In this document: piece after piece, positions 1-30,928 of the stretch | How the letters are laid out: every line of letters begins with the position of its first letter | Position numbering within the stretch: position 1 is the first letter of the stretch | Assembly: GCA_004431415.1 (NCBI GenBank) | Contig: QPMI01000181.1 | Span: 1 to 64,000 of the forward strand | Direction of reading: 5' to 3' | From: Cyanophora paradoxa CCMP329 | Taxonomy: Eukaryota > Plantae > Glaucophyta | DNA: 64,000 nucleotides | Notes under the pieces: model-generated | What the model was told of the DNA's origin: nothing | Database searches by the model: none | Seen by the model: only the letters and a program-made list of their open reading frames with translations | Program-made: the position numbers and the translations under genes

Positions 1-1975
1 AATCCTCTGTGACCTCTCGAAATGCTCTCATTGTGTATGTTTTTTGCAGCCATTCTTTGATTGGCTTCCAGAACCCCACCATAATCTGTTTTAATCCATG
101 CAAGCTCTGCCCTTCCATAATTATCATTTGCAGTTCCCACTATGGGAATGTAGGAATACTTATCTCGACTGAAAACTATCATTGGTCTTGAGCCATCTAA
201 GCTGCTTACATCTGCTACATGAACCTGTATAGCAGAGTTGTAATTTTGGTAGGTTGCTGGGTCTGTTGGGACTCTGAATGTATCTGTGGGAATGTCAGCC
301 TCCATGTAGCTTGACACAAAGATATTTGGTATGGTTGCTCCTGGTGGTGGTGGGGTTTCAAAAGAGCCTGGTAATGTCCTAATATGAAGTGGTCCTCTCA
401 TAGCTGAATTTGCAAGTGTCCCATTCACATGTACATAGTGTTCATTCAAAAAGATTCTTTCAGGGACATTACAAGTCTGGTAAAGAGAAACCCCAAGTTA
501 TCAAGAGGCTCTACCTTTGCGAATTCTGGTTGGTCATTGATCTCATCCCAATATGTTCATGTTTGCTTGGTGGGAATCAGTTGGTATCCATCAATTTCAC
601 CCCAATCATGCCTGTGATCCTCTGGTGGATACTTTTGAGGTTTGCCTAAGATCTCATCCCAATCATGATTGTGATCCTCTGGGGATACTTTGCAGGTTTA
701 TTATTAATTTGTTCATAATCAGGAAAGAACTCCCAGATCTCAGGTCGAAATCCATCTGGTAATAATTCCTCATGGGGTTCATAAGGTTGCTCATAGTCAA
801 CAGCTGGTGGATCATGCCATCTGGTAAATACTCCTCATCAGGTTCATAGTTCTGCTCATACTCAAACTCTTGTGGATCTAAGCCATCTGGTAGTATCTCC
901 TCCTCATTGGGGTCAAATGATCATATTCATATTCTTGTGGGTCAAAACCATCTGGTAAATACTCTTCCTCATCTGGAACGAATTGATATTCATCAAGCTC
1001 TAATATATCGACTTCAGGAGGTAAATACTGCTCATCTATTTGCTTTCTGGGTTCAATTATAGGTTTATTGCGAACTTGCTCCCAACTAACAATATGCTGC
1101 CCAAAGGCTACATCTTCAGTTGCTGTGTATCTCTGCCTGGTTGCTTTTTGGTGTTAAATCGGTGGATCCATGGAAGAGGGAAGGGAACTGGGACAGGTCC
1201 ATAATACTCAAGATCTCTCTTAGGTTTCTCACTTACAAGCTTTCTCCCATTTGCATACACATTGCTGCCATGGATATTTCGCCATTGCCTGGTTCGAATT
1301 CCAAGGTCTTTCACATTGCTATACAAAGGCAAAAGGTGCCTATCCATTTCGACTAAATCAGGATGTAAATGGATTGCTACTGGTTGACTGGGGCTACTGT
1401 TGATTGTAATTGATGGCTTTTTTTGATGGACATCTTTTGGAGTAAAGAAACCAAAAGGCTCATTTCTTGCAAAGTCATATGTAATATCCTTGGGGTAGAC
1501 ATCATTTGTGTAGGAGACCTGATTTGTGTTGGCAATGGGACCCACTTGCAATACTTGGGGGACCTCAGCTTTTGCAGTGCTGCCCTCATTGTAAATTCGC
1601 AAAGCTGTGTTCTGTTTGCCCTGCTCATCTTGAACATTGAAAATCAATCGACCACTATCGAACCTGGAAGGTATATCTGGGTGAGTGCCACTGGTTTTTA
1701 GTTTCCTAGGTCTCCTTCTTGTTGCTTTGATCTCTGCCACTTGGTTTGCTTTCACATTACCCAAACTAAAAGCACACTGACTCCTCTTTATCTGGATCGG
1801 TTTGATTCACAGATAAAGCATGCTCCCTTGATTGAGTCTTTGATGAATTATCAGAGCTGTGGTCAATTGAAACTGAACCCTTTACTTTAATATTATCAAA
1901 GTTCACATGTGTGTGCTTGCTGCTTGCATTATCATCTTGAATGGTTTCTAGATTTGGTGGGTAATTGAAGCTCAT
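1..1975 (-). pseudogene. Frameshifted 5' part of the fibre/spike gene of element A (homologue of 23150-30879); continues beyond window start
   Basis: MSFNYP...HVNFDNI...QTDPDKE (1766-1975) and GNVK...IKATRRRPRKLKTSGTHPDIP...PVPVPFPLPW (1108-1764) align with ORF 23150. The breaks look like single-base losses. Confidence 0.8.
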
Positions 1976-2018
1976 GGCTTTTACTATATGGATTTATAAA
2001 ATTCCTGATAAGTAAAAG

Positions 2019-3561
2019 ATGCCTCTCAAGGTCGTTTAAGTCTTTCTGGGGGGGTGCAAGGGGCATTATCATAACCAGGCTGCTAAAAAAATCGAAAATC
2101 GAACTGGCAGGAGAATAATCGATCTTGTGGATCTTGTGAGTGGAACTTCCACTGGTGGGATCATTGCAATAGGTTTGAATATAAGGCATCCTGATAACCA
2201 GGTGAACCTAAACTGACAGCAAACGATTTACACAATATTTACCTAACTCAACTGCCCTTGATTTTCGCAAATCCTCGAAATATATCGAAAATGCCCTTTT
2301 TAATACAAAGTATGATGTGGGACCCTTGGAGACTGCAATCAATTCAGTTACTGGTGAATCACTAATACAGGATTCCCTAAAGGACATTGTGATTACATCC
2401 TTTGATACTCAGAATATGAAACCAATATTTATCACAAATGACAACAATTACAACTTTGCCTTGTAAGATTGCTGCTAGGGCTACTTCTGCTGCTCCTACA
2501 TATTTCTCTCCTGTAAGCATTGTTGATTTCAATCGGGGAGTATTGTCTGTCTCATTGATGGTGCCATTTCGGGAAACAATAATCCCAGTGTGTGTGGTTA
2601 CAGCCATGCAAAGAAGATTTACAGTGATGATGATGATATTATAGTAATAAGTATCTCTTGTGGTGAGGTGGACCCACATTTAGAGTCTGATTATGTGGGT
2701 TATGCTTATGAGACTGTAACAGCTGGGGCATTCTCTCATGGATTGCCTCAACAGATGGAAGCCCATTGATTAACATGCTCATGGCTGCAAGTGAGCTTTC
2801 TGCCCTTGATAAGATGGAGGAGTTGTTACCCTACAACTATGATCAGGATTATGGGAGATACTATAGGCTATCAGTCCCTCTTCCAAATCACATAGTAAGC
2901 TCCTGATGACACTTCTAAGATCCCAGATATGCTAGCATTCACTGAAACATACATAGCAGCAAACAATGATATGATTAATAAGCTTTGCAGCCTTCTAGTA
3001 GCAAACTATGAACTAAAGAACCCTACAAAGGCTTACATCTCATCCACTCTCACTACATCACCTCCTTTGGATGCCAATTGGTATCAGCTTGCAGATGATG
3101 CCTTTACTGCCTCATCCTCTGTGACAGGTAAAGAGCCTTTCATGGCTAGACCTTCAGCATTTGGCTGGGAAGCTGGAGCCTATGCTCCTGAGCAGATATG
3201 GGAAACCCCCACTGAATACCTTCAAGTTGCTTTCCATATACTTTTGAACTCTCTCTGTGATTGCCTATGGATCAGGGGACACCAATGCTTTTATTAAGAC
3301 TTTCAATGTGGCAACATCCACTGATGGGATCAACTGGTCTTTTATTCGATCAGATGGGCAAAACAAAATATATGTCTGTGAGAACATTAACAATGCTCAC
3401 AACTCAGGTGATGTGGCTCTATTGAGTGGATTTCCTCTCAGCATCAAGGATGCTTTTTACATAGGTTTTCTCTCAGAATTAAATATATTCGCATTTATCC
3501 CCTTGTGTATGTGAATGCTCCCACAATGAGAGTTGACTTTACAGGTGCCTTTATTCGATAA
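2019..3561 (+). pseudogene. Patatin-like phospholipase with C-terminal discoidin (F5/8 type C) domain, frameshifted copy in element A
   Basis: ATG CCT CTC AAG GTC start and fragments (KIAARATSAAPTYF; ETYI...NYELKNP...WETPTEYLQ; IAYGSG...FIKTFNVATS) are collinear with intact ORF 21563-23101. Confidence 0.85.
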
Positions 3562-4470
3562 ACTCCAACTGAAAAGAATTATCGATTCCATTCATATCAA
3601 TCAGTTCACCAAAGTAATCTTTAAACTCAACTGTGAGTTCCCTTATCACCAGGTTTCTGTCATTGATTTGAATAAATTCTGCATGCACCACTATGGTAAA
3701 CATAGCCCCTATATCTTTACTCAATTGCAATCTAAGGATTGCCCCTGGTTTGTGGTTGCGATTTCGGAATTATATTGTGTCTGCTGGCAAAGGGGCAGCT
3801 CTTTAATATGCATGTACAGATACTGCTCAGCATTCATATCAGACATCTTTGCTGTCAAATAATATTGCAAGGGCTTAGAGGAGAGTCTGGGTCCTGAGAA
3901 GGTGATTCCCCATGCTGGGTGATCAGGTGTAATAGGTTTGCCATCATACTTTAAAAGGTTCTCAGGTCGATAGGGATCCACCAACAGGAGGAGTGCTATA
4001 ATACCCATTGGTGTATTCAGTAGAACTTACACCCAAAAGCTTCCCTATTCTCTGGTTGCTTGCAATAAAACGAAACTCATGGTTACTGTAAAACTCCACT
4101 TTATAGGTAGTTGGGTTGTAGAATATCTTGAACTCAAAAGCTACTGTTTTGCCTGCAATGGTTTGGAAGCTTGAATAGTTCAGCCCATAATTATAAGGGT
4201 GTGTTACCCCAAAATGACCCTGATTGATGTAGCCACTGGGAAGGGGATACACTTGTTGTGTGATCACTTGGTTATATGAACCATCTTGGTAATTAAACTG
4301 AACTGTTAGATGATCAGTTCCACACTGTTATAGATACTGTTTGGAATCTCTGCATAAAGAACCCTGCATTCCCTTGGTCTCTCTACTGGAGTTGTGAGGG
4401 TGACCCTGTAAGAGTTTTCATTTTGTCCTTGGCTTCTATCCCTGCTATCAATATTAACGAGCCGGTTCAT
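3551..4470 (-). pseudogene. Minor capsid (penton)-like protein 1, frameshifted
   Basis: Reverse strand reads MNRLVNIDSRDRSQ...YRVTL...YAEIPNSIYN at the start and ...LTVEFKDYFGELIDMNGIDNSFQLEFIE* at the end. These resemble the IDSRDR start and C-terminal pattern of PLV/NCLDV single-jelly-roll minor capsid proteins. Confidence 0.7.
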
Positions 4471-4499
4471 TTTAATATATAAATATAGATAAAAGAAGA

Positions 4500-5487
4500 A
4501 TGCCTGTGGATTACATCGAGGTTAGCTCATTTAATACAATCTCTGGTGATGGTCCCACATCAAGCTTTGTGGCTAGACTCCCCAGTAGTTATGAGAATGT
4601 GAGGGCTGTGAGACTGGTCTCAGCCGAATTTTATAACAGCATCCCTATGGTGAGTGGTGAAACCAAAGCAGGAGATGTACAGTTGACAACATTTAGTATT
4701 TATTATTCTGAACAAACTCCTGGAGCTGGAAGCTCAGGAATTCCAACAGTCGCCCAGCTGCTGATTTGAACAATGGAAACAATTCATTATAAGTCGAACA
4801 CCCCCATCCAAAGCCACCAACAACTGGTGAATGTAATTAACTCAAATTCGAAGGCAGAAATCCCCAACCATCCATTCGCTGCAAATGGGATGAGTCACTG
4901 AAACGAATTATATTCCACTCAGCAGTTTTTACTGGCTTTCTCAGTTGCTGTGAACCCAAGCCAACAATCCAAAAGCTGTTGAGTTCAGCTAGACTGCTGG
5001 TCTTGATCCTGGAAGATATGGTAATCCCCAATCAATCACAGGTCTATGATGCTCTCACTGATGGAATCTTTACTGGTGGTCGTGAATGGCATTATATCTT
5101 CTTTTGAGCCTGAGAAGACCAGGGACAGTGTTTTGTTTGTGAGAGTAAAGGAGCTGGGTGATCTGGTGCAATGTGGGGATGGTCTTCTGACTGGTTACTT
5201 TCACAAATAGTGGTCCCTGATAAAGACTATGGTGAGCATGTTGTTTACAATTCAACAGAAGCTCACCCACTTTACAAATACTATAATAAAAAGGTTGGAT
5301 TATCCACTTCTCGGTTGATATTGTAAATGCTATTAATGAACCAATTGATTTTGAGGGTCAACCTGTTCATCTTACCTTTGAAATTCGCTATGGTGATGAG
5401 CCAGCTGGGGACCCAGTTTATGAATACTTCAAGATGCGAATGTCACAGCTTCAACCTTCCTATCCAGTTATTACAAACTTCGCATAA
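4500..5487 (+). pseudogene. Minor capsid (penton)-like protein 2, frameshifted
   Basis: MPVDYIEVSS...SSFVARLPSSYENVRAVRLVSAEFYNS start and ...VDIVNAINEPIDFEGQPVHLTFEI end match the minor capsid pattern. Confidence 0.65.
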
Positions 5488-5540
5488 ATTAAGGATCATT
5501 GGTAGATTTTTTATGTTGCAGTATAATAAAAGAGAATATA

Positions 5541-6955
5541 ATGGATATCACTTCCACTCTTCAAAGACTTTCGCTGAAAGAAGCCCTAACAACCCCAGAA
5601 GAGGCGAAAGCCTTTTCCTGGATAACTCCCTTATGCTTGGTCTCGAATCCAAATCTAAGCCAGTTCTAGTTGTTGTGAATCCCAGCAATACTTTTGAGAA
5701 TAATGTTGGAAATCGCATTTCCTTCAAGCTACCTCGCTACAATTTCTGTGGAAAACTCGAACTTGCTTTCGACCTTCCAGCCATCACGTTTGCTGGTGAT
5801 ACTGACCTAGTTCGCAATGGATACACTCGCCCAGTTGGTGCTTTAGTTCAGCGACTTGAAATTACCTATGGATCTTACACCTACCATATTCCATCTGATT
5901 TCCTTGCTCATTTCCCCCTGGTCTATTATTCGGAGGATCAACTAAGCTAAAAAGAAGCGATCAATGGGCATGGTTCATGGCATCCCTGCTCATGGAACCA
6001 ACGCCTTGGTGGCTCATTCTTTGTTTGAAATCCCTGTGCCTTGGCTAAATCACTACCTTCCCCTTGGTGCTTTATCTGGTGAAATGGTTGTTACTGTTTG
6101 GTTTAAGGATGCTGGAAAGGGTTATGTTGAAACTTCCTATGGTGGTCGCTCTCTCCCTTTGTTGGTGGGACAGTTGCTGATAAGACAGAAGATGATGGTC
6201 TTGGTGATACTGCTAATGCCACACTTGCCCATGTTGGTCAAATATCACAACTTTCAGTCTTGGTGCAACAACTCCTGTTATTTCTATTACTTCTCCTCGC
6301 CTTTACATGCATGCTATTAATGTTTCTGATGAGCTTTTCGCTACTGTCATTGAAAAGGTTAAGACAACTGGCATGGCTATTCCCTCCCTTGATATTGGAT
6401 TTGTAGATGCTAGTGCTTTCCCTGCCAAGGGCAATGCCAACCCAATCGAATTAACCTCTCTCAAATCTCAGTCTTGTATATGCTCTGCTTGTTTCAGTTC
6501 GTGATCATGAACTGTTGACAAATCCAATGGCTCCCACAGTGTTCTTAAGACCTATGCCAACTCCAAAGACATCACATTCACAACTGAAATAAATGGTCAG
6601 CGATTTTTGCCACTGAGCCAATTTCCCTACTCAAAGGTGCTGAGCTAATTGCTGATGCCTTCAAATGCTCTACATGGATAAGGTTGCTGATCGCTATGTC
6701 CTCTCAGGACTCCCATTCTGTCTTGATGGAGAAAAGGCAATTCGAAATATTGCCCAGTCTGGTTATGTTGATTTAACAAATTCCTCTTCTTCCTTCCTCA
6801 CCCTCTACATGCCCTCAGATAAGGTAATCGATGTTAATGTTCGCGCTCTCATGCATTCGTTTTATAATTTTGGACAAGGATGGTTTAAGGCGTATAAATT
6901 TGTAGATTGTTACGATATTCAGTCACATGCATTATTTTTATCTGTATTTATTTAG
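5541..6955 (+). pseudogene. Major capsid protein (double jelly-roll), frameshifted
   Basis: Fragments ISFKLPRYNFCGKLELAFDLP, LVQRLEITYG and FEIPVPWLNHYLPLGALSGEMVVTVWF. About 450 codons, located between the penton genes and the ATPase. Confidence 0.65.
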
Positions 6956-6969
6956 AAAGATATACAACA

Positions 6970-7751
6970 ATGAATGATTTGGATGAATTTGTGGCTGGTG
7001 AAATGATAGAACCACCATTTCGAGTCCTAGCAATTGGGAAATCAGCAACTGGTAAATCAGAAGCTGTAAAATATTGGTTGAAGCAGTTGCATGATGCCAA
7101 AAAGATTGATGTTGTATTAGTTGTGAGTGGAACCAGCTTCAATCATTTCTGGGATAAAGTTGCAACATTGCAACTGGGAAAATGGGATGCCCCTTACATT
7201 GCTAAATTGCTAGATGAAAGGCAAGAGAAAATAGAAAAAGGTGAACCTGTTAACCAGTTATGTGTGGTTCTAGATGATTTAATCGATAATGAGATTGTAG
7301 ACCTAACTCGTGATAAATTATTGGCTCTCTGTATTCCAGAGGTCGCCATTCGAAAATATCCATTATCTGCATCACACAAAAGCTAAGGAAAGTCTCTTCG
7401 ACTATTCGAGTTAATTCGGACTATGCTATGTTTTTAAGTGCTGCAAATCGCAAAGAACTGGAAGCCATAGAGGAAGAATACAATATAATGCGAAATAAAG
7501 AGGATTTTTACAAGATGTTTGAAGAGTATGTTCACTCCTATCAGTATATTATTTGGTCCTCTGCAAACTACTCAGTTAAATACTATGTAGATAAAGCTGA
7601 GCTTGTGAAAGATTTCCCATTTCCTCGCTTCCACAGAAAGCCAAAAAAGAAAGAAGATGAACTGAAACCTCCAGAGAAAGAGGAAGCCCCTAAAGAAGTG
7701 AAAAGCCAAGTCCATAGCAATAAATTGATGCGATATAAACGCGGTTTATAA
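6970..7751 (+). pseudogene. A32-like (FtsK-HerA) DNA packaging ATPase, frameshifted
   Basis: Walker A GKSATGKS and Walker B VVLDD. The A32 motif YSRGRHSKISIICITQ is in a shifted frame near 7330. Confidence 0.85.
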
Positions 7752-7778
7752 AATTATCTCTCATTCTAATAAGATACA

Positions 7779-8511
7779 ATGCCTCCCAAACGAAAGATAG
7801 GGATCCCAGCTGGGGCTGTTGGCTATTCAGGTGGTGGAAACAATGGATCCATAATACTGAACCAATGAAATTCAATGGTATGAATGAGGTGAAGCCCTCA
7901 CAGCAAGAAGAGGACCTCTTAATGCTGCCTATGAGGAATCAGTCGATGATAAAGCCCCACAGGCTTCAACCAGTGATCAACTCAACATCTCACCAGAAGC
8001 TTCGAAAATGAGGGCTGTTGCTGAGGGTGCCAGGCGAATTATTGGTGCTGCTGATGATAAAGGTTTAGGCTTGCAAGATCTATCACTGGCTCGCAAAGGT
8101 GAAGGTCTTAGTAAGGAATCAGACAAGGTAATCCAGTCCATGGCTGGTGAAGTCACATATAAGACTGCTCCCACTCAAAATATTCATCGAATTCCCAAGG
8201 CTCAATGGGATGAGATGACTGCTAAACTCAAAGATCTGGAAGCCAAATCCAGTGCTTTGGAGCAGTATGTTACTGAGAAGAAAGAGAGAGCCAAGCTAAA
8301 GGAGATGCTTCGAAAGGAAGTTTATAAAATGGGCATTACTGGTGTCCCAGATAAACAGTTTATTGCTAAGAAAGAGAACCAAATCGATGAGCAAGCAGTA
8401 GATGAAATGAAAACAAAGACCCAAAAGGGAACCATTGAACCTGGTGCCACTAAAGCTGAAGTAGAAAAGGGAGTAGCTCCCACAGTATATAAAAGACGAG
8501 TTTGGCTTTAA
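7779..8511 (+). CDS. Hypothetical protein, 5' part frameshifted, coiled-coil-like C-terminus
   Basis: ATG CCT CCC AAA CGA AAG start; ORF 8008-8511 has viral codon style. No family recognised. Confidence 0.45.
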
Positions 8512-8533
8512 TTTTCTCTGTTTTATTAGAGAC

Positions 8534-8806
8534 ATGGATATAATACGAAAGTTTATTGAGATGCTCAGTCTGCATGTGGTAAGCAATTGCCACAGTGGAT
8601 GCTGTGACACAACAATAGAGTTTGAGATGTCAGATACTGAGGATAATGTATCTGAGGCAAGAGAGAGAAGGAGATCAACAGTTTCTGTGGAGTCAATGCC
8701 AGCAGACCCCACAGAGTATACATATGAGCAACAGGAGTATCCAAGGAGAAGTTCTCTGCCAGCAGAAAACGTTTTCTCTGGGAATATAAATGGAGGACAC
8801 TATTAG
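8534..8806 (+). CDS. Small hypothetical protein
   Basis: 90-aa ORF in a tightly packed co-oriented gene run. Confidence 0.45.
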   Translation: MDIIRKFIEMLSLHVVSNCHSGCCDTTIEFEMSDTEDNVSEARERRRSTVSVESMPADPTEYTYEQQEYPRRSSLPAENVFSGNINGGHY

Positions 8807-9035
8807 TTTAATCGAGTTTACCAGTGATGAACCTGTTACTGAGGGTTCTATTAGACACATACTAGCAATGCAGAAACGATATAGAGAGGACCCAGAATAT
8901 AGAGAGTATAAAAAGCAGCAAGCCCTGGCATCCTATTATCGCAGAAAAGCCCAAAAAGAGGAGCAGAGACCCAGAGGGAGACCGATTAAATATTATTTGC
9001 CTACTGATAGTAGCAATGGACCCCCAGGTCTATAA
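8790..9035 (+). CDS. Small basic protein with C-terminal AT-hook-like motif
   Basis: RPRGRPIKY motif; shares QxxYRExxEYRExKKxxALxxY with ORF 9188. Confidence 0.6.
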   Translation: MEDTISLIEFTSDEPVTEGSIRHILAMQKRYREDPEYREYKKQQALASYYRRKAQKEEQRPRGRPIKYYLPTDSSNGPPGL

Positions 9036-9187
9036 GATAATTGAGAAAAAGCGGTCTCAGTATGCCACTGAGGCAGCTATAAAAGTTTACAGACAGGAAC
9101 TGGTGTTCGCAACAAAAAATGACTTAAGGAAAAAGTAGATAGATTGTATTGAGGAAAAATTATTTTCGTATCTACTATTAAAGAGAA

Positions 9188-9514
9188 ATGCCGAATATCC
9201 GCAAGATACTCACAGATGATGAAAAAGCAGAGAAGCTGAGACTGAAAAGGGAGCAAGATGCCCAAAGAAAACGCGAAGCCTATCATAAAAAGAAGCAGGA
9301 ACGATTATCCCAAGGAGCCGCTACAGTTCACACACCAGAAGAACTCAAAAAGATTGCCCTCAGACACCAGAGGAAATACAGGGAAAATGAAGAATATCGC
9401 GAGCAAAAAAAGGCAAAAGCGCTGGAATATTACCACAAGAAGAAAGATGAACAGCCCAAGAAACCCAAAGAGCATAAACCGGTTGGAAGACCTCGGAAAT
9501 ATATCGAAGAATAA
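9188..9514 (+). CDS. Small basic protein with AT-hook-like motif, paralogue of 8790-9035
   Basis: KPVGRPRKY motif in a K/R/E-rich helical sequence. Confidence 0.65.
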   Translation: MPNIRKILTDDEKAEKLRLKREQDAQRKREAYHKKKQERLSQGAATVHTPEELKKIALRHQRKYRENEEYREQKKAKALEYYHKKKDEQPKKPKEHKPVGRPRKYIEE

Positions 9515-9732
9515 ATTCTCGATCGAAACAAATTTTGTAGAAATCGATTTGATCGGAGGCAAAAAAAATGACAGCTTTCTTCCCTCTTTTTTAAAACTGT
9601 ACCTATATATCGAGACAGTATCCCGACCCAAAACTACTTAAGGACTTGGCAAATAATAGGATATATATAAAAGACAATTCCTCCTTCCGAAATTATTTTC
9701 TTCGTTAAAGGTAGAAGTCCCCAAAATCGAAA

Positions 9733-12327
9733 ATGAACAAAATCGAGAAATTCGCCACCCCTGTTGAAAATGCTACATTCCTTAGTACTCTCATTGGTGA
9801 TCGCAACAAGGTCACCCATGTATTTGATTCTGCCGAAGATGCCCTTGAAGCCATTGATAATAGCAAGGTTAAGACCTGGGCTGAATGCATTCAACCTGAG
9901 CAAGTGACCAGAGTTTACCTGGACCTGGATAAATTCGCTGATTTGAAGGAGAACATTGCTGATAACTATGCTGAGGCGGAAACTGTTGTAAGAGAGATGA
10001 GAGATAAGCTATGGAAGCGATCTGGTACCACTTCTATTAACGATATTGCTGTTGCAGTTCGCCATAGAAGGGTTTATTTGATTAAGGAGGATGTCACCAA
10101 GTTCAAGATTTCAGCCCACTTTATTATTAAATCGCTTGCATGCAAACATGAAGATATCCCCAAGCTTTTCAAAGCGATGGGATTGGTGAAAAATGAGGAT
10201 TATGACAGTGGAGTTTACAGCTCCACACAGAACCTAATCTGCCTCAATTGCTGCAAAGGTGAGACTCTGGATGCTCAAAATAAGTCGAAAAAAGATGTTG
10301 ATAAAAACGTTTGCTTTAAGAAATTCGTTGACTGTGACAAAGTGTTAATGCGAAATGAGGACTTCTTTGTATCTTACTTCTCAGCTACTACTAAACTTGT
10401 GGATGAATCAAATATTTCTGCATTTGCAAATTATACTCCTGAGCCAAAACCAGTTAAAAAGGAGCCAAAAAGTGATAAAGTGAAGACTGAGAAGGTAGAA
10501 GCTGAAAAAGACACTGAACCCGAAAATCCTGTTACTTTCGAACTGCTACAAAGTGTTATAATGGGTCTCAATGCTGAAAGAGCCAGCGAGTATAAGACTT
10601 GGATTGATGTTGGACTGGTCATCATCAATGTTGGGGAAGACAACAAATTTACCCCTAAAATGCAGGCTGAACTCTTCCACCAATTCTCAGAACAGAGTGA
10701 CAAGTATGATTATGATGAATGCCAGGAAAAGTTTACACAGCTTCGCAGAAGCAAGAAGAAGGCTGAGCCTGGCAAAGTGTTGACCTTCAAATCCTTGGTT
10801 TATTGGTTGAGCAAAGATAACAATGAGCTTTTCAAGGAACTCTTCCCCAAAAAGTATGCATTCCTACCAGAGGACACAGATGAAATCGATTACAAGACTG
10901 CAAGTATCCCTCCTTTGGCTGAACATTACAATGTGCATAAGAGGTATTTCAATGCTCGCATGCATCATGTTGAAAATGTTGGTTGTGTGATGCTCTGGGA
11001 TGAACAACTACTTTGCTGGATGCCCAAAGACATTGGAAAACTGTCTACAAAGCATTTCCCCCACTTGATGCATAAGGTGATTGTGAATGAGGGGACAGAT
11101 AATGAGAAAGAGAAATGGGAGCAATCATTTAGGAAATGGATTGTGGATCCAACAGCCACAAGATCAACTTACATGGATTTCCTCCCACCTCCTGCTACTC
11201 TCAGTGCAAAATGCAAGTCTGTATTTAATCTCTATCCAGGAATGAAGGTCGACCATCAGCAATTCGAAAATGCTCCAGAGGATGTAACTGCTGAGATGAT
11301 TAAGCCTTTCCTTGATCACTTGTTCTTAATGTCTGGTGAGGATCAAAATACCTATGAATATCTGTTGAAATGGTTTGCCCACATGCTGCAAAAGCCTGGG
11401 GAACTCAATGGAGTATCCTTAATCTTCATTGGTGAACAGGGAACTGGTAAGAATGTGTTGGTTGATACTTTCCAAAAGAAGATACTTGGAGATGCCCTGA
11501 GTTATGCAACTGGTAAGCCAAAAGAGGATCTGTTTGGTCGATTTGCCCACAATAGAGAGGATAAGATCTTGATTGTTGTGAATGAAGCCTCAGGCAAGGA
11601 CACATTCGAAAATAATGATATGCTTAAAGATCTCATTACTTCTGATAAGATTGTTATTGAACACAAAGGGATAGATTCATACACAAAAAGCAACTTTGCC
11701 AGGATTATATTCACCAGCAATAACAACATTCCAGTTAAAATTGAAGCTGGAGATAGGCGATTTGTGGTTGTTGAAGTTAGTAAGAAATTCGCAAAGGATA
11801 GGTCATACTTCCTTCCACTTGTAAAATGGCTTAATGATCACTGCAATATTCGAAACATTGCCCACTATTTGAGAACCAAAGTTGAATGTGAGGATGTGAA
11901 CTGGATTGCTGATAGACCCCTTACAAATAAATACTATTTAGCCCAGCAGGTGTGCGCTCCAATCATCCTTATGTTCACTAAGTGGCTTGTGGATCGAGGC
12001 TTAATTTCCGAGAATAAATGCAAGTCTGGTAGCCTTGTGGAAACCTGGAAATGGTTCCAGGAGTTCATTACCAGCAATAAATATAAAAACGATTATAATA
12101 GTCGCAGATATTATACAGAAATGCGAAGTGTTACATATATCCAAGTGAAAACTACAAATGGTAAACAATACTATCATTTCCTATTCCCACAAGTATTTGA
12201 GGAATTCAGAAAGATGAAGCTTGTAGATGATGAGACCATTGAGGAAGAAGCTAATCCAAGGATGAAACAAGAACTACCTGCTGCTGATCCTGATGCATCA
12301 GATTATGACTCTGATGTTGAAGTTTAG
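9733..12327 (+). CDS. Primase-helicase: AEP-type primase, PriCT-2-like domain, D5-like SF3 helicase
   Basis: RVYLDLD and SAHFII (AEP motifs); YKTWIDVGL...FSEQSDKYD (PriCT-2); Walker A GEQGTGKN, VVNE, IFTSN and DRRF. Intact 864-aa ORF. Confidence 0.9.
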   Translation: MNKIEKFATPVENATFLSTLIGDRNKVTHVFDSAEDALEAIDNSKVKTWAECIQPEQVTRVYLDLDKFADLKENIADNYAEAETVVREMRDKLWKRSGTTSINDIAVAVRHRRVYLIKEDVTKFKISAHFIIKSLACKHEDIPKLFKAMGLVKNEDYDSGVYSSTQNLICLNCCKGETLDAQNKSKKDVDKNVCFKKFVDCDKVLMRNEDFFVSYFSATTKLVDESNISAFANYTPEPKPVKKEPKSDKVKTEKVEAEKDTEPENPVTFELLQSVIMGLNAERASEYKTWIDVGLVIINVGEDNKFTPKMQAELFHQFSEQSDKYDYDECQEKFTQLRRSKKKAEPGKVLTFKSLVYWLSKDNNELFKELFPKKYAFLPEDTDEIDYKTASIPPLAEHYNVHKRYFNARMHHVENVGCVMLWDEQLLCWMPKDIGKLSTKHFPHLMHKVIVNEGTDNEKEKWEQSFRKWIVDPTATRSTYMDFLPPPATLSAKCKSVFNLYPGMKVDHQQFENAPEDVTAEMIKPFLDHLFLMSGEDQNTYEYLLKWFAHMLQKPGELNGVSLIFIGEQGTGKNVLVDTFQKKILGDALSYATGKPKEDLFGRFAHNREDKILIVVNEASGKDTFENNDMLKDLITSDKIVIEHKGIDSYTKSNFARIIFTSNNNIPVKIEAGDRRFVVVEVSKKFAKDRSYFLPLVKWLNDHCNIRNIAHYLRTKVECEDVNWIADRPLTNKYYLAQQVCAPIILMFTKWLVDRGLISENKCKSGSLVETWKWFQEFITSNKYKNDYNSRRYYTEMRSVTYIQVKTTNGKQYYHFLFPQVFEEFRKMKLVDDETIEEEANPRMKQELPAADPDASDYDSDVEV

Positions 12328-12518
12328 GTTTACTCAAAAGTGGACTCACAGTTGACTCAAATTTATCATAAAAGACCCAAACAGTCTTTTATTTATGGTT
12401 TATTTATCGATTAGGTTGACTAAGTGGGGGAGTTGACTCATTTTTTCACAGATTCTAAAAGAGGACTCTGCCCTAAAAAGAAATAAAAAGTGCCTCAACT
12501 CCACCCACTAAGTCAACC
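12328..12518. repeat. Iteron-like direct and inverted repeats (GTTGACTCA/GTTGACTAA), candidate origin, copy 1
   Basis: GTTTACTCA, GTGGACTCA and GTTGACTCA at 11-12 bp spacing right after the helicase stop. Imperfect inverted repeat 12414-12437 vs 12494-12518 around an AT-rich spacer. Confidence 0.7.
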
Positions 12519-12569
12519 AAAAAATGATTTAAGAGATAGAAAAATATATTTATATGTAACTAGTAAGAA

Positions 12570-12920
12570 ATGGCTGGAACAGATCATGATTCTGGATCGA
12601 TCTATATGATTGAGAGTCAGGAAATGAACAAAGTCTACATAGGAAGAACCTCACAGCCACTTCAAAAAAGATGGAGACAACACAAATCAGGTCAAATGCC
12701 ATCTACAGCAGACCTATGCAAGGCTTCTGATGTGAAGTTCTCAGTCCTGTATTCAAGTAAGAAGGGTGGGCATGAAGACCTAATGAACAGAGAAGCATAT
12801 TACATGTATCTCTTTGAACCTTGGATAGTCAATTTACAAAAACCGAAATCCCGATTTAGGATTAATAGGTTTTTGCGATTCCATTCAGAGGAAGCCAGTG
12901 GATCCATTAAAACATTTTAA
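12570..12920 (+). CDS. GIY-YIG endonuclease
   Basis: GSIYMI...VYIGRT...RWRQH...REAYY...N pattern. Confidence 0.8.
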   Translation: MAGTDHDSGSIYMIESQEMNKVYIGRTSQPLQKRWRQHKSGQMPSTADLCKASDVKFSVLYSSKKGGHEDLMNREAYYMYLFEPWIVNLQKPKSRFRINRFLRFHSEEASGSIKTF

Positions 12921-12980
12921 ATTGCGTTTAGAACATCCTAAAATAAAATATCCCCTTAGAATAGGAACAAGTTAGGAATA

Positions 12981-15900
12981 ATGCCCCGAATTACCAACAA
13001 ACTCATAAGGGAGAAGAAATGGGAACTCATGGGATTGCTGGGAACACTTTATGCAGCCCATGAAATTACAGAGGCTGAATATGACCGGGAAATAGATTTA
13101 ATTGCAAAGGGTAGACCCACTTTAGCCAGATTAACCAGAAAAGCAAATAACCTATATGATAAAATTGAAACCTTGGATGAACTGGATCGCCTAAGGCAAA
13201 TAGAACCTGAGGCAGAAGATGGAACAGCCATGAATGAATTATATCGCTGGCTCACTTACAGAGCCAGAAGGGAAGTTGTTGTAGATGTGATTGAATTCCT
13301 GGACAGAATTGCTACATCCCTTCCAAATCGATTAAAGCAGGGTTTAGATCAATTCAGGGCAATCAAGGTTCGCTTGTCTTTTATCTGCAAGTTCGTAAAA
13401 GTGAGCAATCCACAGGTTTGGATATCGAAATACATTTACAGTGATTACTTTGTATTAACCAGGTCGAGAAATATTCGAACTGAGCTGAATAAAGCAGCCC
13501 AAATGTGTCAGGAGCAGATGAATGTGGTTGATAGCTATCGCTTAGAAAGAATTGAAATACTCAGAGTGGCTATTATGAGTTATGCTCCAACTGGTGGATG
13601 CTTTCTACAAACCCCAGAGTGGATTGCTAGGAAGAGAGCCACAGTGAATATTCGAAATATTGATGATTCCTGCTTCGAAAATGCGATTTTAGCCTCGATT
13701 TACAGAAAATCTATTAACTCCCATAAGAGGAATGAGCTTTCCCAATATCGCAAATGGAAATACTCACCAATCGCTTACAATCCTCTTGCTCTGAATTTCG
13801 ATAACATCCCATTCCCTGTTGCCTGTGATGCTGAGATTATTGATAAATTCGAGGCTCAAAATGCAGGCATTAGCATTAATATATTCGGAATCGATGGAGA
13901 GGTTGTTTATCCCCTGCATCAATCCAGTAACCCAGGCAGAAAGCATAAGGTTAATCTCATGCTGATATTTGATGATGAAGGGAATGGTCATTATATTACA
14001 ATCATGTCCCTTTCAAGATTATTGAAAGTAAACCATGAAACATACAATGATCAGAAGTTACACTACTGTGACACATGCTTATCTCGATTCAGGTCTGAGG
14101 CTAAACTCACTGCTCATGTGGACTCAAATAGATGCATTGACTGGAGACTCTCAAAGGGAATCACCCCTAAACCTGAGACCACCATAGAGTTTGGACTGAA
14201 AAACCTCAGGAAAACTGTTTGGCTTCCTGTTGTGGTCTACTGCAAGATTGAACATAGAAGCATCCCCATTGATGCATCGAAATCCAAGAGGGAAGTTTCA
14301 GCAGTCAACCTTAGAGTAGTCACTGGGGAAGATGTTCAAGATTTTCGATTTGAGGGGCAGGATCCAATGGGAGGTCTCTTTGAATGCTTGGAGTCCAAAG
14401 CTAGAGAACTAATCGATTTCCTGTTCACCAATATTCCAATGAATGAACTCACAGATGAGCAAAAGGCTATTTACAGGGCTACTAAAAACTGTTACCTTTG
14501 CAGTGAGAGGTTCACTAAAGAAAATTTCAAATGCAGAGATCATGACCACCACACAGGTCATTACATTGCTCCTGCATGCAGAAACTGCAATCTCCATAGG
14601 AGAATCTCAAAGCAAACCAAAGTTGCAGTTGTTGTTGACCAAATGGATGACTGTGGGACATTCATTTTCAGAAAAATAGCAGGTTTGGGTGATAAAAAGC
14701 GAATCGAAATCCTTTCGAAAAACTTTGATCAATACCTTTCATTGCAATGGGGTCTTTACAAGTTCATTGATGCAAGCAATTTCATGGATTTCGGAGCTGC
14801 TGATGTGACTGAGTTAATGAACAAATTCCAAGCCTTCAGAAGGCTTTCACACTCAGTATATGGACTTGACCCAGTTCATTATGTATCTGCACCTGGGCTA
14901 TCTTGGGATGCTATGCTTAGGACCACCAAGGCAAAAATAGAACTCATCAGTGATGTAGAGCAATACGAATTTGTTGAGAGGGGAATCAGGGGTGGCTTTG
15001 CAACAATGCCCTGTAGGTATGCTGAGGCAGATGGTGAGAACTCCCATATAATGCTGTTTGATGCTAACAACTTGTATGGCTACTGTTTGAGTCAGCCAAT
15101 CCCAGTTGGTGATTTTAGATGGGAGACCGAATTCAACCCACAAGATAACAGATCCAGTTTCCTAGAAGTTGATCTGGATTACCCAATTAGGCTGTTTCTA
15201 GATCACAGTGATTTCCCCCTAATTATTAACAAGAAAATAGTAGAATATGCCGAATTATCACAATATCAAAAGAGCCTATTAGATCTTTCAGGAGAAGAGC
15301 TTGATAAGACCCCTAAGCTAACTGCAACCTTTGGTTCTGTGACAAACTATGTGATTTCTGAGCCTCTCCTACAGTATCTGTTGGACAAAGGGGTGAAATT
15401 AAAGAAGGTTCACAGGGTCCTATCATTTACTGTGGCTCCTGTCATGAAACCCTATATTGAGCTGAACACTGAGATGAGAAGGAAAGCAGTGAATAAATTC
15501 GAGGCTGATTTCTATAAGCTCATGAATAACTCAATCTATGGGAAATGCATTGAATCTTGCAGAGGTAGATCTGTGGTTAAGATTGCAAACAGTGAGAAAC
15601 TGTTTATGAAATATGCAGCCTCTCCATTGGTGAAATCAACAAGCCCCATAAACGAAAGAGCAGTTGCCTTTGAGTTTTACACAAAACATGTGAAGCTAGA
15701 TAAGCCTGTTGCTATTGGGGCTTATGTTTTGGATGCAGCCAAACTGCATAATTACCAGTTCTTCTATGATACTGTGAGGTCCCAATGGTCAAAAGCAAAG
15801 TTGCTATTCCATGATACTGATTCCTTCTGTCTATATATTGAATCTCACACCCTCCAAAAGGACCTGGGGAATATCTCTTATGCATTGGACCTTGGAGGTG

Positions 15901-16226
15901 ATTCAAGAATGACCCCAGGTAAATACAAAAATGAAATGCCAGGTTCTGCTATATTAGAATATGTGGGTCTGAGAGCCAAAGTTTACAGTTTCAGAACTGC
16001 TGAGATTGAGAGAAGTAAGCTCTCTGGGACTTCCACTGAGGAACTCCAATTTAATGATTTTAAGCAGTGTTTATTTGCAGGTATCAGCAAGACTGTGACT
16101 GCAAAGCAGAAAAGAAGGGCAGATCACACAATAGTAGACACTGTGAGTAGAAGGGTTGCCCTGAACTGCTTTGATGCAAAGAGATACATCTTACCAGATG
16201 GTATTAATTCTGTTCCTTTTAATTAA
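12981..16226 (+). CDS. polB: Maverick/Polinton-type family B DNA polymerase with Zn finger and endonuclease VII-like insert; exonuclease motifs degenerate
   Basis: DANNLYG, KLMNNSIYGK and FHDTDS polymerase motifs; CYLC...RDHDHHTG...ACRNCN Endo VII-like domain; CDTC...H zinc finger. Intact 1081-aa ORF. Confidence 0.92.
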   Translation: MPRITNKLIREKKWELMGLLGTLYAAHEITEAEYDREIDLIAKGRPTLARLTRKANNLYDKIETLDELDRLRQIEPEAEDGTAMNELYRWLTYRARREVVVDVIEFLDRIATSLPNRLKQGLDQFRAIKVRLSFICKFVKVSNPQVWISKYIYSDYFVLTRSRNIRTELNKAAQMCQEQMNVVDSYRLERIEILRVAIMSYAPTGGCFLQTPEWIARKRATVNIRNIDDSCFENAILASIYRKSINSHKRNELSQYRKWKYSPIAYNPLALNFDNIPFPVACDAEIIDKFEAQNAGISINIFGIDGEVVYPLHQSSNPGRKHKVNLMLIFDDEGNGHYITIMSLSRLLKVNHETYNDQKLHYCDTCLSRFRSEAKLTAHVDSNRCIDWRLSKGITPKPETTIEFGLKNLRKTVWLPVVVYCKIEHRSIPIDASKSKREVSAVNLRVVTGEDVQDFRFEGQDPMGGLFECLESKARELIDFLFTNIPMNELTDEQKAIYRATKNCYLCSERFTKENFKCRDHDHHTGHYIAPACRNCNLHRRISKQTKVAVVVDQMDDCGTFIFRKIAGLGDKKRIEILSKNFDQYLSLQWGLYKFIDASNFMDFGAADVTELMNKFQAFRRLSHSVYGLDPVHYVSAPGLSWDAMLRTTKAKIELISDVEQYEFVERGIRGGFATMPCRYAEADGENSHIMLFDANNLYGYCLSQPIPVGDFRWETEFNPQDNRSSFLEVDLDYPIRLFLDHSDFPLIINKKIVEYAELSQYQKSLLDLSGEELDKTPKLTATFGSVTNYVISEPLLQYLLDKGVKLKKVHRVLSFTVAPVMKPYIELNTEMRRKAVNKFEADFYKLMNNSIYGKCIESCRGRSVVKIANSEKLFMKYAASPLVKSTSPINERAVAFEFYTKHVKLDKPVAIGAYVLDAAKLHNYQFFYDTVRSQWSKAKLLFHDTDSFCLYIESHTLQKDLGNISYALDLGGDSRMTPGKYKNEMPGSAILEYVGLRAKVYSFRTAEIERSKLSGTSTEELQFNDFKQCLFAGISKTVTAKQKRRADHTIVDTVSRRVALNCFDAKRYILPDGINSVPFN

Positions 16227-16229
16227 GAG

Positions 16230-17615
16230 ATGCCAGCAACTGGAAGAATAGTTAGGAGAACCACTGAGCAACTGCAAGGTAACCTACTGCCTATCACAAT
16301 TCCAAAGGAGGAAAAGGGGGAATCTCGAATTGTTAAAAAGTCTGAAATGAAAGAGCTTGTCCCAGTAGAGATCCCAGTTGCCATTGCAGTGAAAGAAACT
16401 AGCAAGATTGCCAAGAGATTCTATGATGTGAGAACTGGTTACAAAGGGCTTCAAGCTATGAGGGCTGAGTTACCTGATGAATCCTATAAGCAGTTGCAAG
16501 AGTTCTATAAAAAACAAGAAGTTGTTCAGATCAATGCACCTGCTATATCTAGGAAGAGAGATCCCATGGTCCCAATTAGGCAACCCCTTGATACCTATGT
16601 GATTGATTTGCTCTTTTTCCCAGCTTATAAGAAACAAAACAATGGCTATGATACATTTATGACTGCAATGGAATCAACACTGAGAACTGGGTATATTATA
16701 CCTATAAGAGATAAATCAGCTCTCACTACATTGGCTGCATTTAAACAGCTTGAGATGAGAGTGGCAAGACCAATAGTAAAGGTTCAATCAGATGCTGGAA
16801 GTGAGTTCCAAAATCGAATATTCCAGGAGTATTTATCTAGTAAATTCATAGAACACCAAGTGAGTGGAACTGCTGACCACAGAAGCCAAGGTCGAATTGA
16901 AGCCTTTAACAAGCAGATTAAGAGACTGATCACAAACTACTGCATAGCTAATAACACAGCTAGATTCTTTGATGTGTTAGGTGATATTGAGTATAATTAC
17001 AATAATACAGTTCACTCAGCTACTAAGATGAAGCCAGGCGAAACTACAGAGGAGCATTATAGGTATATAGTGGGATTAGAAGATGAAAGATTCAAGAAAT
17101 CAATAGCTTACCTTGATACCATGCAGCCTGGCATGTTTGTTAGAGTGAAAGTTGAGAAGAACCCCTTTGCTAAACAGGGTAACAATTGGTCTAGGATGGT
17201 TTACACTGTTGATAGTAGGGAAGGCTTTAAATTTAAGCTAAGGAGTCCCACTGGAGAGATCATAGATAACAGGTTTGCTTTCCATGAGCTGTTGCCTGTG
17301 AATGCAGTTGAGTATCTAGAAACACCTACAGTGGATGCCTTGGAGCAAGCTAAAGAGGAAGCTAGGGTTGATGCTGCTATAAGGAGAGAGGGCATAGAAG
17401 CTGCTAATGAAGTCCCAGATAAGCCTTTGATAGAGGCTAGAAAGGAGAAGGCTGGGAAAGTTAACAGGGAACTCAAAAAGCTCACCATAGCAGGGACACA
17501 GAAACTTTCAGAAGTGAATAGCCAGAGATGGTATAATGACTTTCAGACTACTAAGGAGTCATATACAGCTCCTAAACCTCAAAGAACACTAAGAGAAAGG
17601 ACCAAAACTAGCTAG
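16230..17615 (+). CDS. Retroviral-type (rve) DDE integrase
   Basis: YVIDL, QSDAGSEF and GRIEAFNK (D-D-E); YNNTVHSAT; Polinton-like C-terminal VRV...WS...Y.V...ELL. Confidence 0.93.
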   Translation: MPATGRIVRRTTEQLQGNLLPITIPKEEKGESRIVKKSEMKELVPVEIPVAIAVKETSKIAKRFYDVRTGYKGLQAMRAELPDESYKQLQEFYKKQEVVQINAPAISRKRDPMVPIRQPLDTYVIDLLFFPAYKKQNNGYDTFMTAMESTLRTGYIIPIRDKSALTTLAAFKQLEMRVARPIVKVQSDAGSEFQNRIFQEYLSSKFIEHQVSGTADHRSQGRIEAFNKQIKRLITNYCIANNTARFFDVLGDIEYNYNNTVHSATKMKPGETTEEHYRYIVGLEDERFKKSIAYLDTMQPGMFVRVKVEKNPFAKQGNNWSRMVYTVDSREGFKFKLRSPTGEIIDNRFAFHELLPVNAVEYLETPTVDALEQAKEEARVDAAIRREGIEAANEVPDKPLIEARKEKAGKVNRELKKLTIAGTQKLSEVNSQRWYNDFQTTKESYTAPKPQRTLRERTKTS

Positions 17616-17841
17616 TTTGCTAGGCAAAAACTCGTTTTTTCCAAATATATGTATGACTGATATACATATATGCATATGATATACACATAGTCTTGTAGAT
17701 CTTATCAAGCGCTTCACAGCGATATGCAGAACGTTGCGTTTTGATGATCTGGTGATGAGATATAACAGTTTGAAGATGCAAAAGTCACTTGCCATAGTAG
17801 ACTTGGTGAAAGACTAGCCCAGGAGTCGACTCGACGGTAAG

Positions 17842-17913
17842 CCGTTTTTGGCTCAGAGAATAGAGCGCTTGATTTCTGACTCCAACCTACGCGGTTCAAA
17901 TCCGCTCGGGAAC
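17842..17913 (+). ncRNA. Degenerate tRNA-like unit with RNA polymerase III A and B boxes
   Basis: TGGCTCAG with a GCTC/GAGC D-stem and GCGG-TTCAAAT-CCGC T-arm at canonical tRNA spacing. Acceptor and anticodon stems do not pair in register. T6 run at 17961. Confidence 0.45.
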
Positions 17914-18547
17914 CTTTACTTCGTTCGCCGTGAAACTTGAAAAGTAAAAACAAAACGCGGTTTTTTCTAGATTAATGCTGTACCCGTCTAGAAAATCAAT
18001 ATTCACGTTTGCTACGATATCTCAACACCAACTTATCAAATCGATGCGCTTAAAACGTCATAAAATCGAGCATTTCAAGGCGGTCACAGCGCTTATGAGC
18101 CATATCGGAATTTCACTAACTGTAACTCCAAATCGCGATGAAACCGATTTTGAATTTTGATTTTAAATTCGATTAAAATCCATTAAACGTGAGTTTTTAA
18201 TATAGATCACTAGGAAGTTATCAAATCGATGCACTGACGGTCGAATATAATCCCATATATCATACATAACAATAACTTGCAATCACATATACGAATCGCA
18301 ATGTGTATAGATCGCTATTACGATTAAAGCGAGTTTTGAAATTCAAAATTAATTCGATTAAATTCGATTATAACTCAAAAATCGCGATTTATAACCATAT
18401 ACTTATCGTTTCGATCAACTTATGATATCGAATATTCAACTATATTATATTGCTTCGATAACCGTGATTACATATGTGGAACCATCAATCTAACACTGCA
18501 TTTAGTAAGCATCTGCCCTAGATTCCCCCCATTACCCTATTATTTAA

Positions 18548-18982
18548 GTGGACTCAAGGTTGACTCATATTAATCGTAAAAGTAGTAAAAGTATATGGAT
18601 TTTGTTACGAATTCAATGCAAGGGTTGACTAAGTGGGTTGAGTTGACTCAAATTTCACAGGAAATATTTGGGACCTAAAGTTTTCTAAAAAGGATTTGAA
18701 AAAATGTGTCAACTCCCCCCACTTAGTCAACCCTGACCATAAACAGTAAGGATTTGAGCTAACATGTATCACAAAGTGAACATTTTGAGTCCACTTAGAA
18801 GATCCACTTTTGAAATCCAAGTTGATTTTGCTTGAAATTTCAAAGTTGATCTAAAAGTGAGTCCACCCTGATTGATTATGGTAACAAAGTTGACTAAGTT
18901 GACTAAGTTGAGTCATCTTAAGAAATTCAAAGAGACTAAGAGTTCAAAATGTTTATGAAAAGTGAGTCAACTTAGACCACTT
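18548..18982. repeat. Iteron-like GTTGACT repeats of element A, copy 2 (subterminal)
   Basis: Same arrangement as 12328-12518. Inverted repeat GGTTGACTAAGTGGGTTGAGTTGAC (18623-18647) vs GTCAACTCCCCCCACTTAGTCAACC (18708-18732), with more copies to 18982. Confidence 0.75.
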
Positions 18983-19029
18983 CTGATAACAAAGTTAAAT
19001 ATTTAATTGATTTAATCGGAAAAGAACAT

Positions 19030-19259
19030 GATTTAATCGAATTTATTGATATAATTCCGATTAGATTCATTTAGGATTCAATTAAGATCAATCGAAGTTA
19101 TTGATATAATTCCGATTAACTACAATTAAGATACAATATCGATTAATCGAGTTTATCGATATAACATCGATTAAATTAATTGAAAATGCATATAAAAATA
19201 CGAAAATTCATGTGAAAATTCAAATAAATTAATCGATTTTATTGATATAACATCGAATC
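19030..19259. repeat. AT-rich subterminal repeats GATATAA-N3-CGATT
   Basis: Four copies (gatataattccgatt x2, gatataacatcgatt, gatataacatcgaat). Confidence 0.6.
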
Positions 19260-19332
19260 ACACATATGAATATTCATATTTTAATCCTGAGGCGGAACGC
19301 CGAGGGATTAAAATATGAATATTCATATGTGT
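19260..19332. repeat. Terminal hairpin of element A (28-bp perfect stem, 17-nt GC-rich loop)
   Basis: ACACATATGAATATTCATATTTTAATCC (19260-19287) is the exact reverse complement of 19305-19332. Confidence 0.92.
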
Positions 19333-20082: not shown

Positions 20083-20267
20083 TATACTTGCTCAATACTT
20101 CTCTTTTTATTTTTTCGATCTCCAAGTAGCAGCAAACCACGGATCAGATGCAGCAACCATATGCACCTTAAACCGGGGTCATTTGGATCGATCGCAAAGT
20201 AGTTTGGTTTCGGGTGTTCTGTCCAAACCGGCTCGTCCATTATTAATATATTGAAAATAAAGTAAAG

Positions 20268-23101: not shown

Positions 23102-23149
23102 CTTTACTTATCTTAAATTTAATAAATCTGTATAAGTAGAGCAAGCAGG

Positions 23150-30879: not shown

Positions 30880-30928
30880 TTAACTCACAGATCGCTTTAT
30901 TTTTCTAATCTTCTTAGTAAAAGAAGCA

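Follow-up and report, generated by a model that had tools for sequence, protein, structure and literature searches.

Two adjoining Polinton-like viruses in a GC-rich genome

The DNA considered here (the window) is a stretch of 64,000 nucleotides (positions 1 to 64,000, forward strand, of contig QPMI01000181.1, GenBank assembly GCA_004431415.1) from the glaucophyte Cyanophora paradoxa CCMP329, a species whose genome is 67.6% GC with 86-bp introns (PMC6704402); it is composed of two AT-rich elements (about 40% GC), called A and B, followed from about position 35840 by intron-rich host DNA of 69% GC. Elements A and B are two related Polinton-like viruses (PLVs), adjoining one another in a GC-rich genome (Table 1). 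The body of A is depleted of CG dinucleotides (CpG) according to the bases that flank them, the survivors being favoured at T-CG-A in A/T-rich surroundings, whereas in B and in the host DNA of the window the adjacent bases of CG occur about as expected.

Table 1. Features of elements A and B (o/e, observed over expected; VCGB, a CG without 5' T and without 3' A; ORF, open reading frame)
Feature	Position	Strand	Remarks
Element A, CpG-depleted body	1..17615		left end outside window; CpG o/e 0.29; 19/206 CG are VCGB; last body CG at 17039
A, fibre-like gene	1..1975	-	frameshifted; homolog of B 23150-25225; tblastn 71% over N-terminal part
A, patatin-like phospholipase fused to F5/8 domain	2019..3561	+	homolog of B 21563-23101; frameshifted by 1-2 nt deletions
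A, two divergent ORFs	3570..5500	both	frameshifted; six-frame reading
A, major capsid protein candidate	5541..6902	+	frameshifted; P0125 (456 aa) maps across region
A, A32-like packaging ATPase	6970..7751	+	frameshifted; Pox_A32 E=2.9e-4 and 0.079 on its two pieces
A, primase-helicase (PriCT_2 + DUF5906)	9733..12327	+	intact, 864 aa
A, GIY-YIG nuclease	12570..12920	+	intact; E=9.9e-11
A, protein-primed-type DNA polymerase B	12981..16226	+	intact, 1081 aa; DNA_pol_B_2 E=2.3e-13
A, rve integrase	16230..17615	+	intact, 461 aa; rve E=2.6e-4; 74% identity to B integrase
A, right terminal region	17621..19332		non-coding, 1.7 kb; CpG o/e 1.44; ends in 73-bp hairpin 19260-19332
Element B, internal control	19333..35011		truncated DNA polymerase B, integrase, patatin, fibre genes, AdoMet decarboxylase, terminal repeats, hairpin 34927-35011

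The hallmarks of PLVs recognised in A are DNA_pol_B_2, the rve integrase and the A32-like ATPase, the last matched in one fragment of its frameshifted gene; the rve match falls under the Pfam gathering score, and the homologs P0002 and P0003 carry PF00665. Relatives of the A polymerase, at 31-34%, are found on four IMG/VR contigs, an integrase being present on each. In the left part of A (positions 1-9700) every gene of the virion module is frameshifted, nearly always by deletions of 1-2 nt, while the replication genes are intact; the fibre-like gene has 12 gaps and no stop in 314 codons, and the patatin-F5/8 gene 11 gaps of 1-2 nt and 2 stops in 501 codons. Since almost all of these lesions are 1-2 nt deletions, with only 2 stops in 815 codons, an assembly error is likelier than decay. 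The two divergent ORFs are presumably minor capsid proteins, as judged from their C-terminal motifs; no relevant Pfam match was obtained for four fragments of the plus-strand and three of the minus-strand ORF. The candidate double jelly-roll major capsid protein found no match in Pfam and PDB searches, and its predicted model has a pLDDT of 35; the nearest Atlas clusters of P0125 (score 0.98) carry Capsid_N/Capsid_NCLDV on 12-18% of their members, the recognition score (1773) being below the threshold (2300). Between the virion and replication modules lie two small ORFs, basic in composition and bearing GRP motifs (8800-9514, plus strand), one with a weak AT-hook match (E=0.13), and upstream of the nuclease and polymerase genes an intergenic copy of part of the terminal region of A (12338-12518; 69% over 189 nt, including a match to a 36-nt inverted repeat).

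Element B starts in the middle of its polymerase gene, which aligns to that of A from residue 844; the simplest reading would be that A inserted into B, whose left part lies outside the window. The right ends of both elements are near-perfect hairpins of 73-85 bp with a GAA loop and identical terminal letters, the left ends being outside the window. The terminal region of B (33565-34629) contains inverted repeats of 35 nt and units of 59-63 nt arrayed in tandem, and ATCGAT occurs 12 times within 33517-35011. Next to it (33118-33516, plus strand) stands an intact homolog of S-adenosylmethionine (AdoMet) decarboxylase (Pfam E=3.2e-12, Atlas 0.90), which could conceivably drain the methyl donor and damp host methylation; viral homologs of this enzyme may act on ornithine or arginine instead (PMC10407285). 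The corresponding end of A lies beyond the window.

Context and reach of the CpG depletion in element A

Positions 1-17620 hold 206 CG, corresponding to a CpG o/e of 0.29. The original prediction, that nearly only TCG and CGA survive in A, is borne out: with the expectation taken from flank frequencies, VCGB accounts for 19 of these sites against a null mean of 92.5 (lowest of 2000 draws, 69; binomial p=3.7e-29), whereas the controls match expectation, both in B (231/536, that is 0.43, 0.46 expected) and in the host DNA (2404/3474, that is 0.69, 0.67 expected). Among tetramers, o/e is 1.18 for TCGA, 1.03 for TCGC, 0.49 for GCGA, 0.30 for CCGA, 0.28 for TCGG, 0.21 for ACGA and 0.16 for TCGT, while all nine VCGB tetramers lie between 0.00 and 0.10, so that the VCGB-specific deficit persists once composition is corrected for; correction for dinucleotides gives a survival of 0.96 for TCGA, 0.63 for TCGC/GCGA, 0.23 for TCGG/CCGA, 0.22 for TCGT/ACGA and 0.00-0.10 for VCGB. 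Thus ACGA, named beforehand as a surviving context, is kept above the VCGB level but is, like TCGT, itself strongly depleted, so that survival in a context is a relative matter. As to the rare VCGB sites listed beforehand, those at 4463, 6002 and 13086 are real, and the one placed at 5786 has its C at 5787; 6 of the 19 fall within 9052-9480, overlapping the region of the GRP-motif ORFs, and the fibre-like gene has none (42 expected).

The two integrase stretches quoted in support of the prediction, ATCACGAAC in B and ATCACAAAC in A, are located at 20985 and 16929, respectively; overall, homologous stretches hold 4 CG in the integrase of A against 86 in that of B, and 1 against 34 in the C-terminal part of the polymerase. 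That B keeps CG in all contexts holds in so far as it has no VCGB deficit, but B is not CG-rich throughout, o/e being 0.56 (without context bias) over 25301-31000. The depletion of A ends sharply at the integrase stop codon, the terminal region having 23 VCGB (21 expected), and in the host part of the window no 800-bp interval has a CpG o/e below 0.75.

The pattern is not a codon artefact, because it persists at the silent sites of the four intact genes of A, where the ratio of CG to its product is 20/69 with a 5' T on both strands, 11/115 and 12/134 with one T and 3/231 with neither (non-CpG controls, 445/468 and 412/474, about 0.9); TCGA itself is down about threefold at these sites. The fate of a given cytosine depends also on the flank of the opposite strand (odds ratio 6.9, p=0.002), confirming the earlier claim that both flanks matter; this excludes a simple single-strand rule, and with it an APOBEC/AID-like deaminase, which would read only the base 5' of the mutated C. 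Indeed, a two-state model, crude in that it rests on four data cells, fits only where loss on either strand removes the site (deviance 1.8, against 19 without partner effect), the fitted per-strand ratio of the rates after T and after any other base (T/V) being about 0.25, with 0.1-0.4 tolerable.

The adjacent bases matter as predicted, although the true reach is greater. When A and T are counted over the eight bases at distances 2-5 on both sides of CG, survival, expressed as CG/(CG+TG+CA), rises from 3/40 at three or fewer to 21/36 at seven or more for TCGA, and from 3/210 to 36/115 for the mixed class; the effect holds at silent sites alone (p=1.6e-7) and is small beyond 5 bp, whereas in B it is absent from TCGA and weak otherwise. 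The cross-validated area under the curve (AUC) is 0.76 for the adjacent bases, reaches 0.83 once four bases are included and stays level thereafter, positions 6-9 alone giving 0.54; a model trained on the left half of A yields an AUC of 0.86 on its right half, 0.58 on B, 0.57 on the A terminus and 0.47 on the host. The rule is therefore an A/T-rich footprint of about 10 bp around T-CG-A, wider than the two adjacent bases, and such a graded and symmetric footprint would be the mark of a protein contacting duplex DNA. Shielding by N6-methyladenine at ApT was rejected, TTCG (118) being as common as ATCG (87) among the survivors.

Other copies of A bear on the age of the pattern. At least half of the words of A are contained in 17 of 24 listed sequencing runs, all of one organism; no RNA run is listed among those containing A, which has no bearing on its expression. 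The comparison of copies covers four of the 24 runs and positions 12900-19400. Three DNA-like runs have 1282-2828 contigs each over this region (contigs give no copy number), mostly 90-99+% alike, and A likely belongs to a multi-copy family of endogenous PLVs. The differences among copies are symmetric (in run X1, C>T 42, G>A 44, T>C 35 and A>G 38), and among the 21 that were checked, out of 40 displayed and 394 found, none restores a CG; the loss is thus likely to be family-wide, in keeping with the predicted lineage trait, rather than specific to this copy. A hypermutation of this copy relative to its sisters, of the kind of fungal repeat-induced point mutation (RIP), was rejected given the symmetric spectrum in three runs and the 0/21 restored sites. 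Because A abuts the middle of the B polymerase gene, A is likely the later arrival, yet the depletion is confined to it; if so, time at this locus cannot explain the contrast between the two. Scans of the sequence collection with the integrase and with the capsid alignment found no loci, and that with the polymerase found four distant viral loci, none having the CpG context pattern.

Beyond B, 829 nt of 51% GC and CpG o/e 1.19 (35012-35840) separate its end from a minus-strand host gene (36150-47000) with many short introns and, by eye, several apparent GC donors, which from its motifs we take to be a DExH-box RNA helicase; a further host gene (61500-63250, plus strand) has repeated exons (repeat families D16, D18 and D19), which we take to be ankyrin repeats.

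Methylation, mutation and selection as possible sources of the pattern

The host is equipped for CG methylation: in C. paradoxa, two DNMT1 and one DNMT3 are reported, mCG stands at 32% and most repeats are methylated (PMC12344493, in section 6 of which flank effects in Cyanophora are not analysed). The host CG methyltransferase invoked in the original prediction is thus plausible, its action on A being suggested by sequence; an antiviral role is not borne out, methylation extending to most repeats of the host.

Part of the evidence points to deamination of 5-methylcytosine (5mC). At four-fold sites of A, T before G is in excess (0.56 vs 0.39, p=0.004; 0.60 vs 0.49, p=0.04), and in the patatin and fibre homologs TG and CA were both gained as CG was lost. 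Arginine codons require more: at conserved arginines CGN is used in 2/37 cases in A and 18/37 in B (p=4e-5), A being recoded to AGR; after a base other than T, CGB accounts for 1/95 arginines in A and 14/72 in B (p=3e-5), while after T CGN is kept in 21/52, as expected if methylatable sites are purged. Since deamination cannot turn CGN into AGR, and selection at the protein level would keep CGN, selection against the CG sites themselves is also needed; of the proposal of deamination filtered by purifying selection, the first half is thus partly supported by the TG excess and the second must be recast. Two routes are conceivable: a loss of copies with mutable essential codons that is frequent enough to matter, or an escape from silencing by copies in which fewer sites can be methylated; by our own estimate a load-based selection would be of the right order, given a dyad multiplier of tens and a family diversity of a few percent. 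The intact helicase, polymerase and integrase ORFs put forward earlier say little in this respect, since CGA>TGA is the sole change by which a CpG transition can create a stop codon.

The explanation that we consider, on balance, the probable one is that host CG methylation is inefficient at AT-flanked T-CG-A, and that deamination and the purging of mutable sites followed. It would accommodate the flank-graded loss, its strand symmetry and reach of about 10 bp, the lack of it in B and at the A terminus, and the recoding of arginine by a series of steps that we infer as follows. Chromosomal copies of A would be methylated by the DNMT1/DNMT3 system of the host, a poor flank on either strand lowering methylation of the whole dyad, as expected with maintenance limiting; 5mC would then deaminate and silent CG drain to TG and CA, a 5' T cutting the fitted rate per strand to about one quarter. 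Copies keeping a well-methylated CG in an essential codon would more often be mutated dead or silenced, and the propagating lineage would thereby swap CGN for AGR. The A lineage would have passed repeatedly through methylated chromosomal copies over a much longer time than the B lineage, and the A terminus would likely be unmethylated, or selected for CG-containing binding sites. The surviving sites likely mark those that host methylation handles poorly, namely T-CG-A surrounded by A/T-rich sequence for about 4-5 bp on either side.

Several observations weigh against this explanation. The best fit of the two-state model is a transient, non-equilibrium state. Four-fold NCN sites show no surplus of the product CA (0.34 vs 0.29, p=0.25), and A has less NCA than B, so that avoidance fits better than deamination here; the first genes of B, which are not depleted, show a similar trend of T before G (0.56 vs 0.42, p=0.06). 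The 240 classified CG of B correspond in A to 65 TG, 46 CA, 14 CG and 115 other dinucleotides, in an alignment that is saturated; indeed, only 30.5% (47/154) of A/B four-fold sites are identical, and polarising substitutions in this alignment, as originally suggested, is uninformative. The commonest survivors, TTCGAA and ATCGAT, together with ATCGAA and TTCGAT, are outside the roughly 155 lowest-ranked flanks of mouse DNMT1 as read by eye (PMC7381644), and this enzyme favours A/T at +2, so that the mouse profile as such was rejected. Finally, A and B are both depleted in restriction-like words such as GGCC and GTAC, that is, they avoid motifs without CG methylation.

The foremost of the other explanations, which we regard as unlikely, is that the methylase is even-handed and that the bias originates in context-dependent deamination of 5mC, or in a T:G repair working best at AT-flanked T-CG-A, compounded over strands and time. 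The summed mutation rates of human methylated CpG do rank the ten dyad classes of A (Spearman -0.89, p=0.0005, in two normalisations and -0.76 in a third; -0.05 to -0.43 in B), and in MBD4-knockout human cells the order is ACG > CCG > GCG > TCG (PMC11564873); the specificity is thus only partly as unusual as had been claimed. The host window correlates as well in one normalisation (-0.68), however, which makes the rank match partly compositional, and the effect of A/T within 4 bp on either side resembles the footprint of a protein. The human 5mC spectrum (SBS1/SBS96; PMC13245866, PMC11564873) likewise has 5' T as the least mutable context, with similar dyad ranks, but its T/V ratio is 0.78 where about 0.25 is needed (deviance 27 at 0.8 and 2 at 0.2-0.3), and human intrinsic mutability was therefore rejected as the full cause on strength, though the order agrees; a repair enzyme biased in this way may nevertheless be involved.

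Somewhat less probable still is direct selection without hypermutation, in which low-CG copies escape a CG-directed defence (a silencing reader of methyl-CpG, or a nuclease encoded by the host or by a helper giant virus), contexts being spared where this defence does not recognise them. The recoding of arginine, which needs transversions, and the missing CA excess at NCN sites would agree with it, as would the lack of GGCC in A (0, 28 expected), its low GTAC and GCAC/GTGC, and the lack of GTAC, CTAG and GGCC in B; on the other hand pyrimidines make up an unchanged share of the bases before G, as would follow from C>T, a gradient over ten bases stands in place of an all-or-none effect, and the A terminus retains its 23 VCGB, which a nuclease would cut unless they were protected. 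An origin of the footprint in a foreign methyltransferase, belonging to a helper giant virus or to an earlier host of the A lineage, is very improbable: giant viruses do carry restriction-modification systems (PMC12220804) and B lies in the same genome without the footprint, but no C5-methyltransferase was found among the 49 ORFs and fragments of the window scanned (the left end of A being outside it), the host already methylates CG on repeats, and the four distant viral relatives lack the pattern. Methylation by the host itself is further favoured by the glaucophyte PLVs, for which Table S6 of PMC12220804 lists no C5-methyltransferase (PF00145).

The word gaps persist after codon control: B (19333-33516) has GTAC 0 times (40 expected), CTAG 0 (21), GGCC 0 (11) and AGCT 14 (37), and on its sense strand GTGC 3 (23) while GCAC occurs 39 times (49); A (1-17620) has GTAC 2 (16), GCAC 2 (15), GTGC 3 (14) and GGCC 0 (9). 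These gaps may reflect nucleases of helper giant viruses; avoidance of splice donors is a weak explanation for GTAC and GTGC, since there is no depletion of GTCC, a donor common in the host. On the plus strand of 19001-25000, CTGG occurs 0 times and CTGC once, CCAG and GCAG being common whatever the direction of the genes, a bias that shifts after about 26000.

Returning to inefficient host methylation, a bolder form of this explanation, which we put forward tentatively and hold to be possible though short of probable, is that A preserves, like a fossil, the read-out of a glaucophyte DNA methyltransferase with a previously undescribed directional flank rule of about 10 bp (skipping WWWT-CG-AWWW), and that the virus, by recoding even conserved arginines, shed its well-methylatable sites and so evolved a resistance that B did not. 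A CpG footprint separating two sister lineages in one genome would gauge time in methylated chromatin from sequence alone; PMC12220804 leaves open whether endogenous PLVs spread in the manner of viruses or of nuclear transposons. From the footprint, the flank preference of a methylation system that belongs to an early branch of the plant lineage can also be predicted base by base; uneven methylation across NNNNCGNNNN contexts is implied, and, host methylome data being published (PMC12344493, PMC12695648), the prediction is checkable without new experiments.

Comparison with known systems

Phenomena of this kind are known; literature searches on CpG depletion or avoidance, Polinton, endogenous virophage and methylation found neither this rule nor its strength nor its imprint in a PLV, a matter on which subscription papers and supplements may also bear. 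The likeness of A and B to the glaucophyte PLVs described in PMC12220804 is one of gene set: among 156 of these, rve is found in 85, lipase in 89 and AdoMet decarboxylase (PF02675) in 66, as in A or B, and pPolB (PF03175) in 49, the A32 ATPase in 139, PriCT_2 in 15 and GIY-YIG in 5, as in A; patatin-discoidin fusions and PTR fibre repeats resembling those of A and B are described there, PLVs with discoidin occurring also in Rhizaria, and the term CpG is absent from its main text.

RIP in some basidiomycetes targets TCG. As described in PMC12543289, fungal RIP is, like the loss in A, a context-specific C-to-T loss in repeats; it targets CpA, and the copies of A are instead 90-99% alike with symmetric changes. 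A flank-biased CG methylome of a protist, with methylated polinton-related insertions, similar to what is suggested here, is that of Amoebidium (PMC11244446), which differs in its hypermethylation of CGC/GCG and in having silenced regions where methylation extends to every context; the account given there reports no mutational footprint and makes no mention of deamination. In mammals, the A/T-flanked CpG known as solo-WCGW are, as proposed for A, poorly re-methylated after replication, with an effect decaying over positions 1-3 (10.1101/2022.08.16.504069); solo-WCGW includes ACGT, whereas A has 3 ACGT (63 expected) and a directional rule (5' T, 3' A). Human DNMT3A and DNMT3B follow other flank rules (PMC2936528). 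Mouse DNMT1 (PMC7381644) has T/A favoured at +2, unlike A, and a main effect spanning two bases on either side; its flank effects are of about 100-fold, and in line with A it shows a strong disfavour for CGCGAG (GCGA being spared in A) and a preference for TACGTA and TCCGTA, that is, for the ACGT and CCGT which A has lost.

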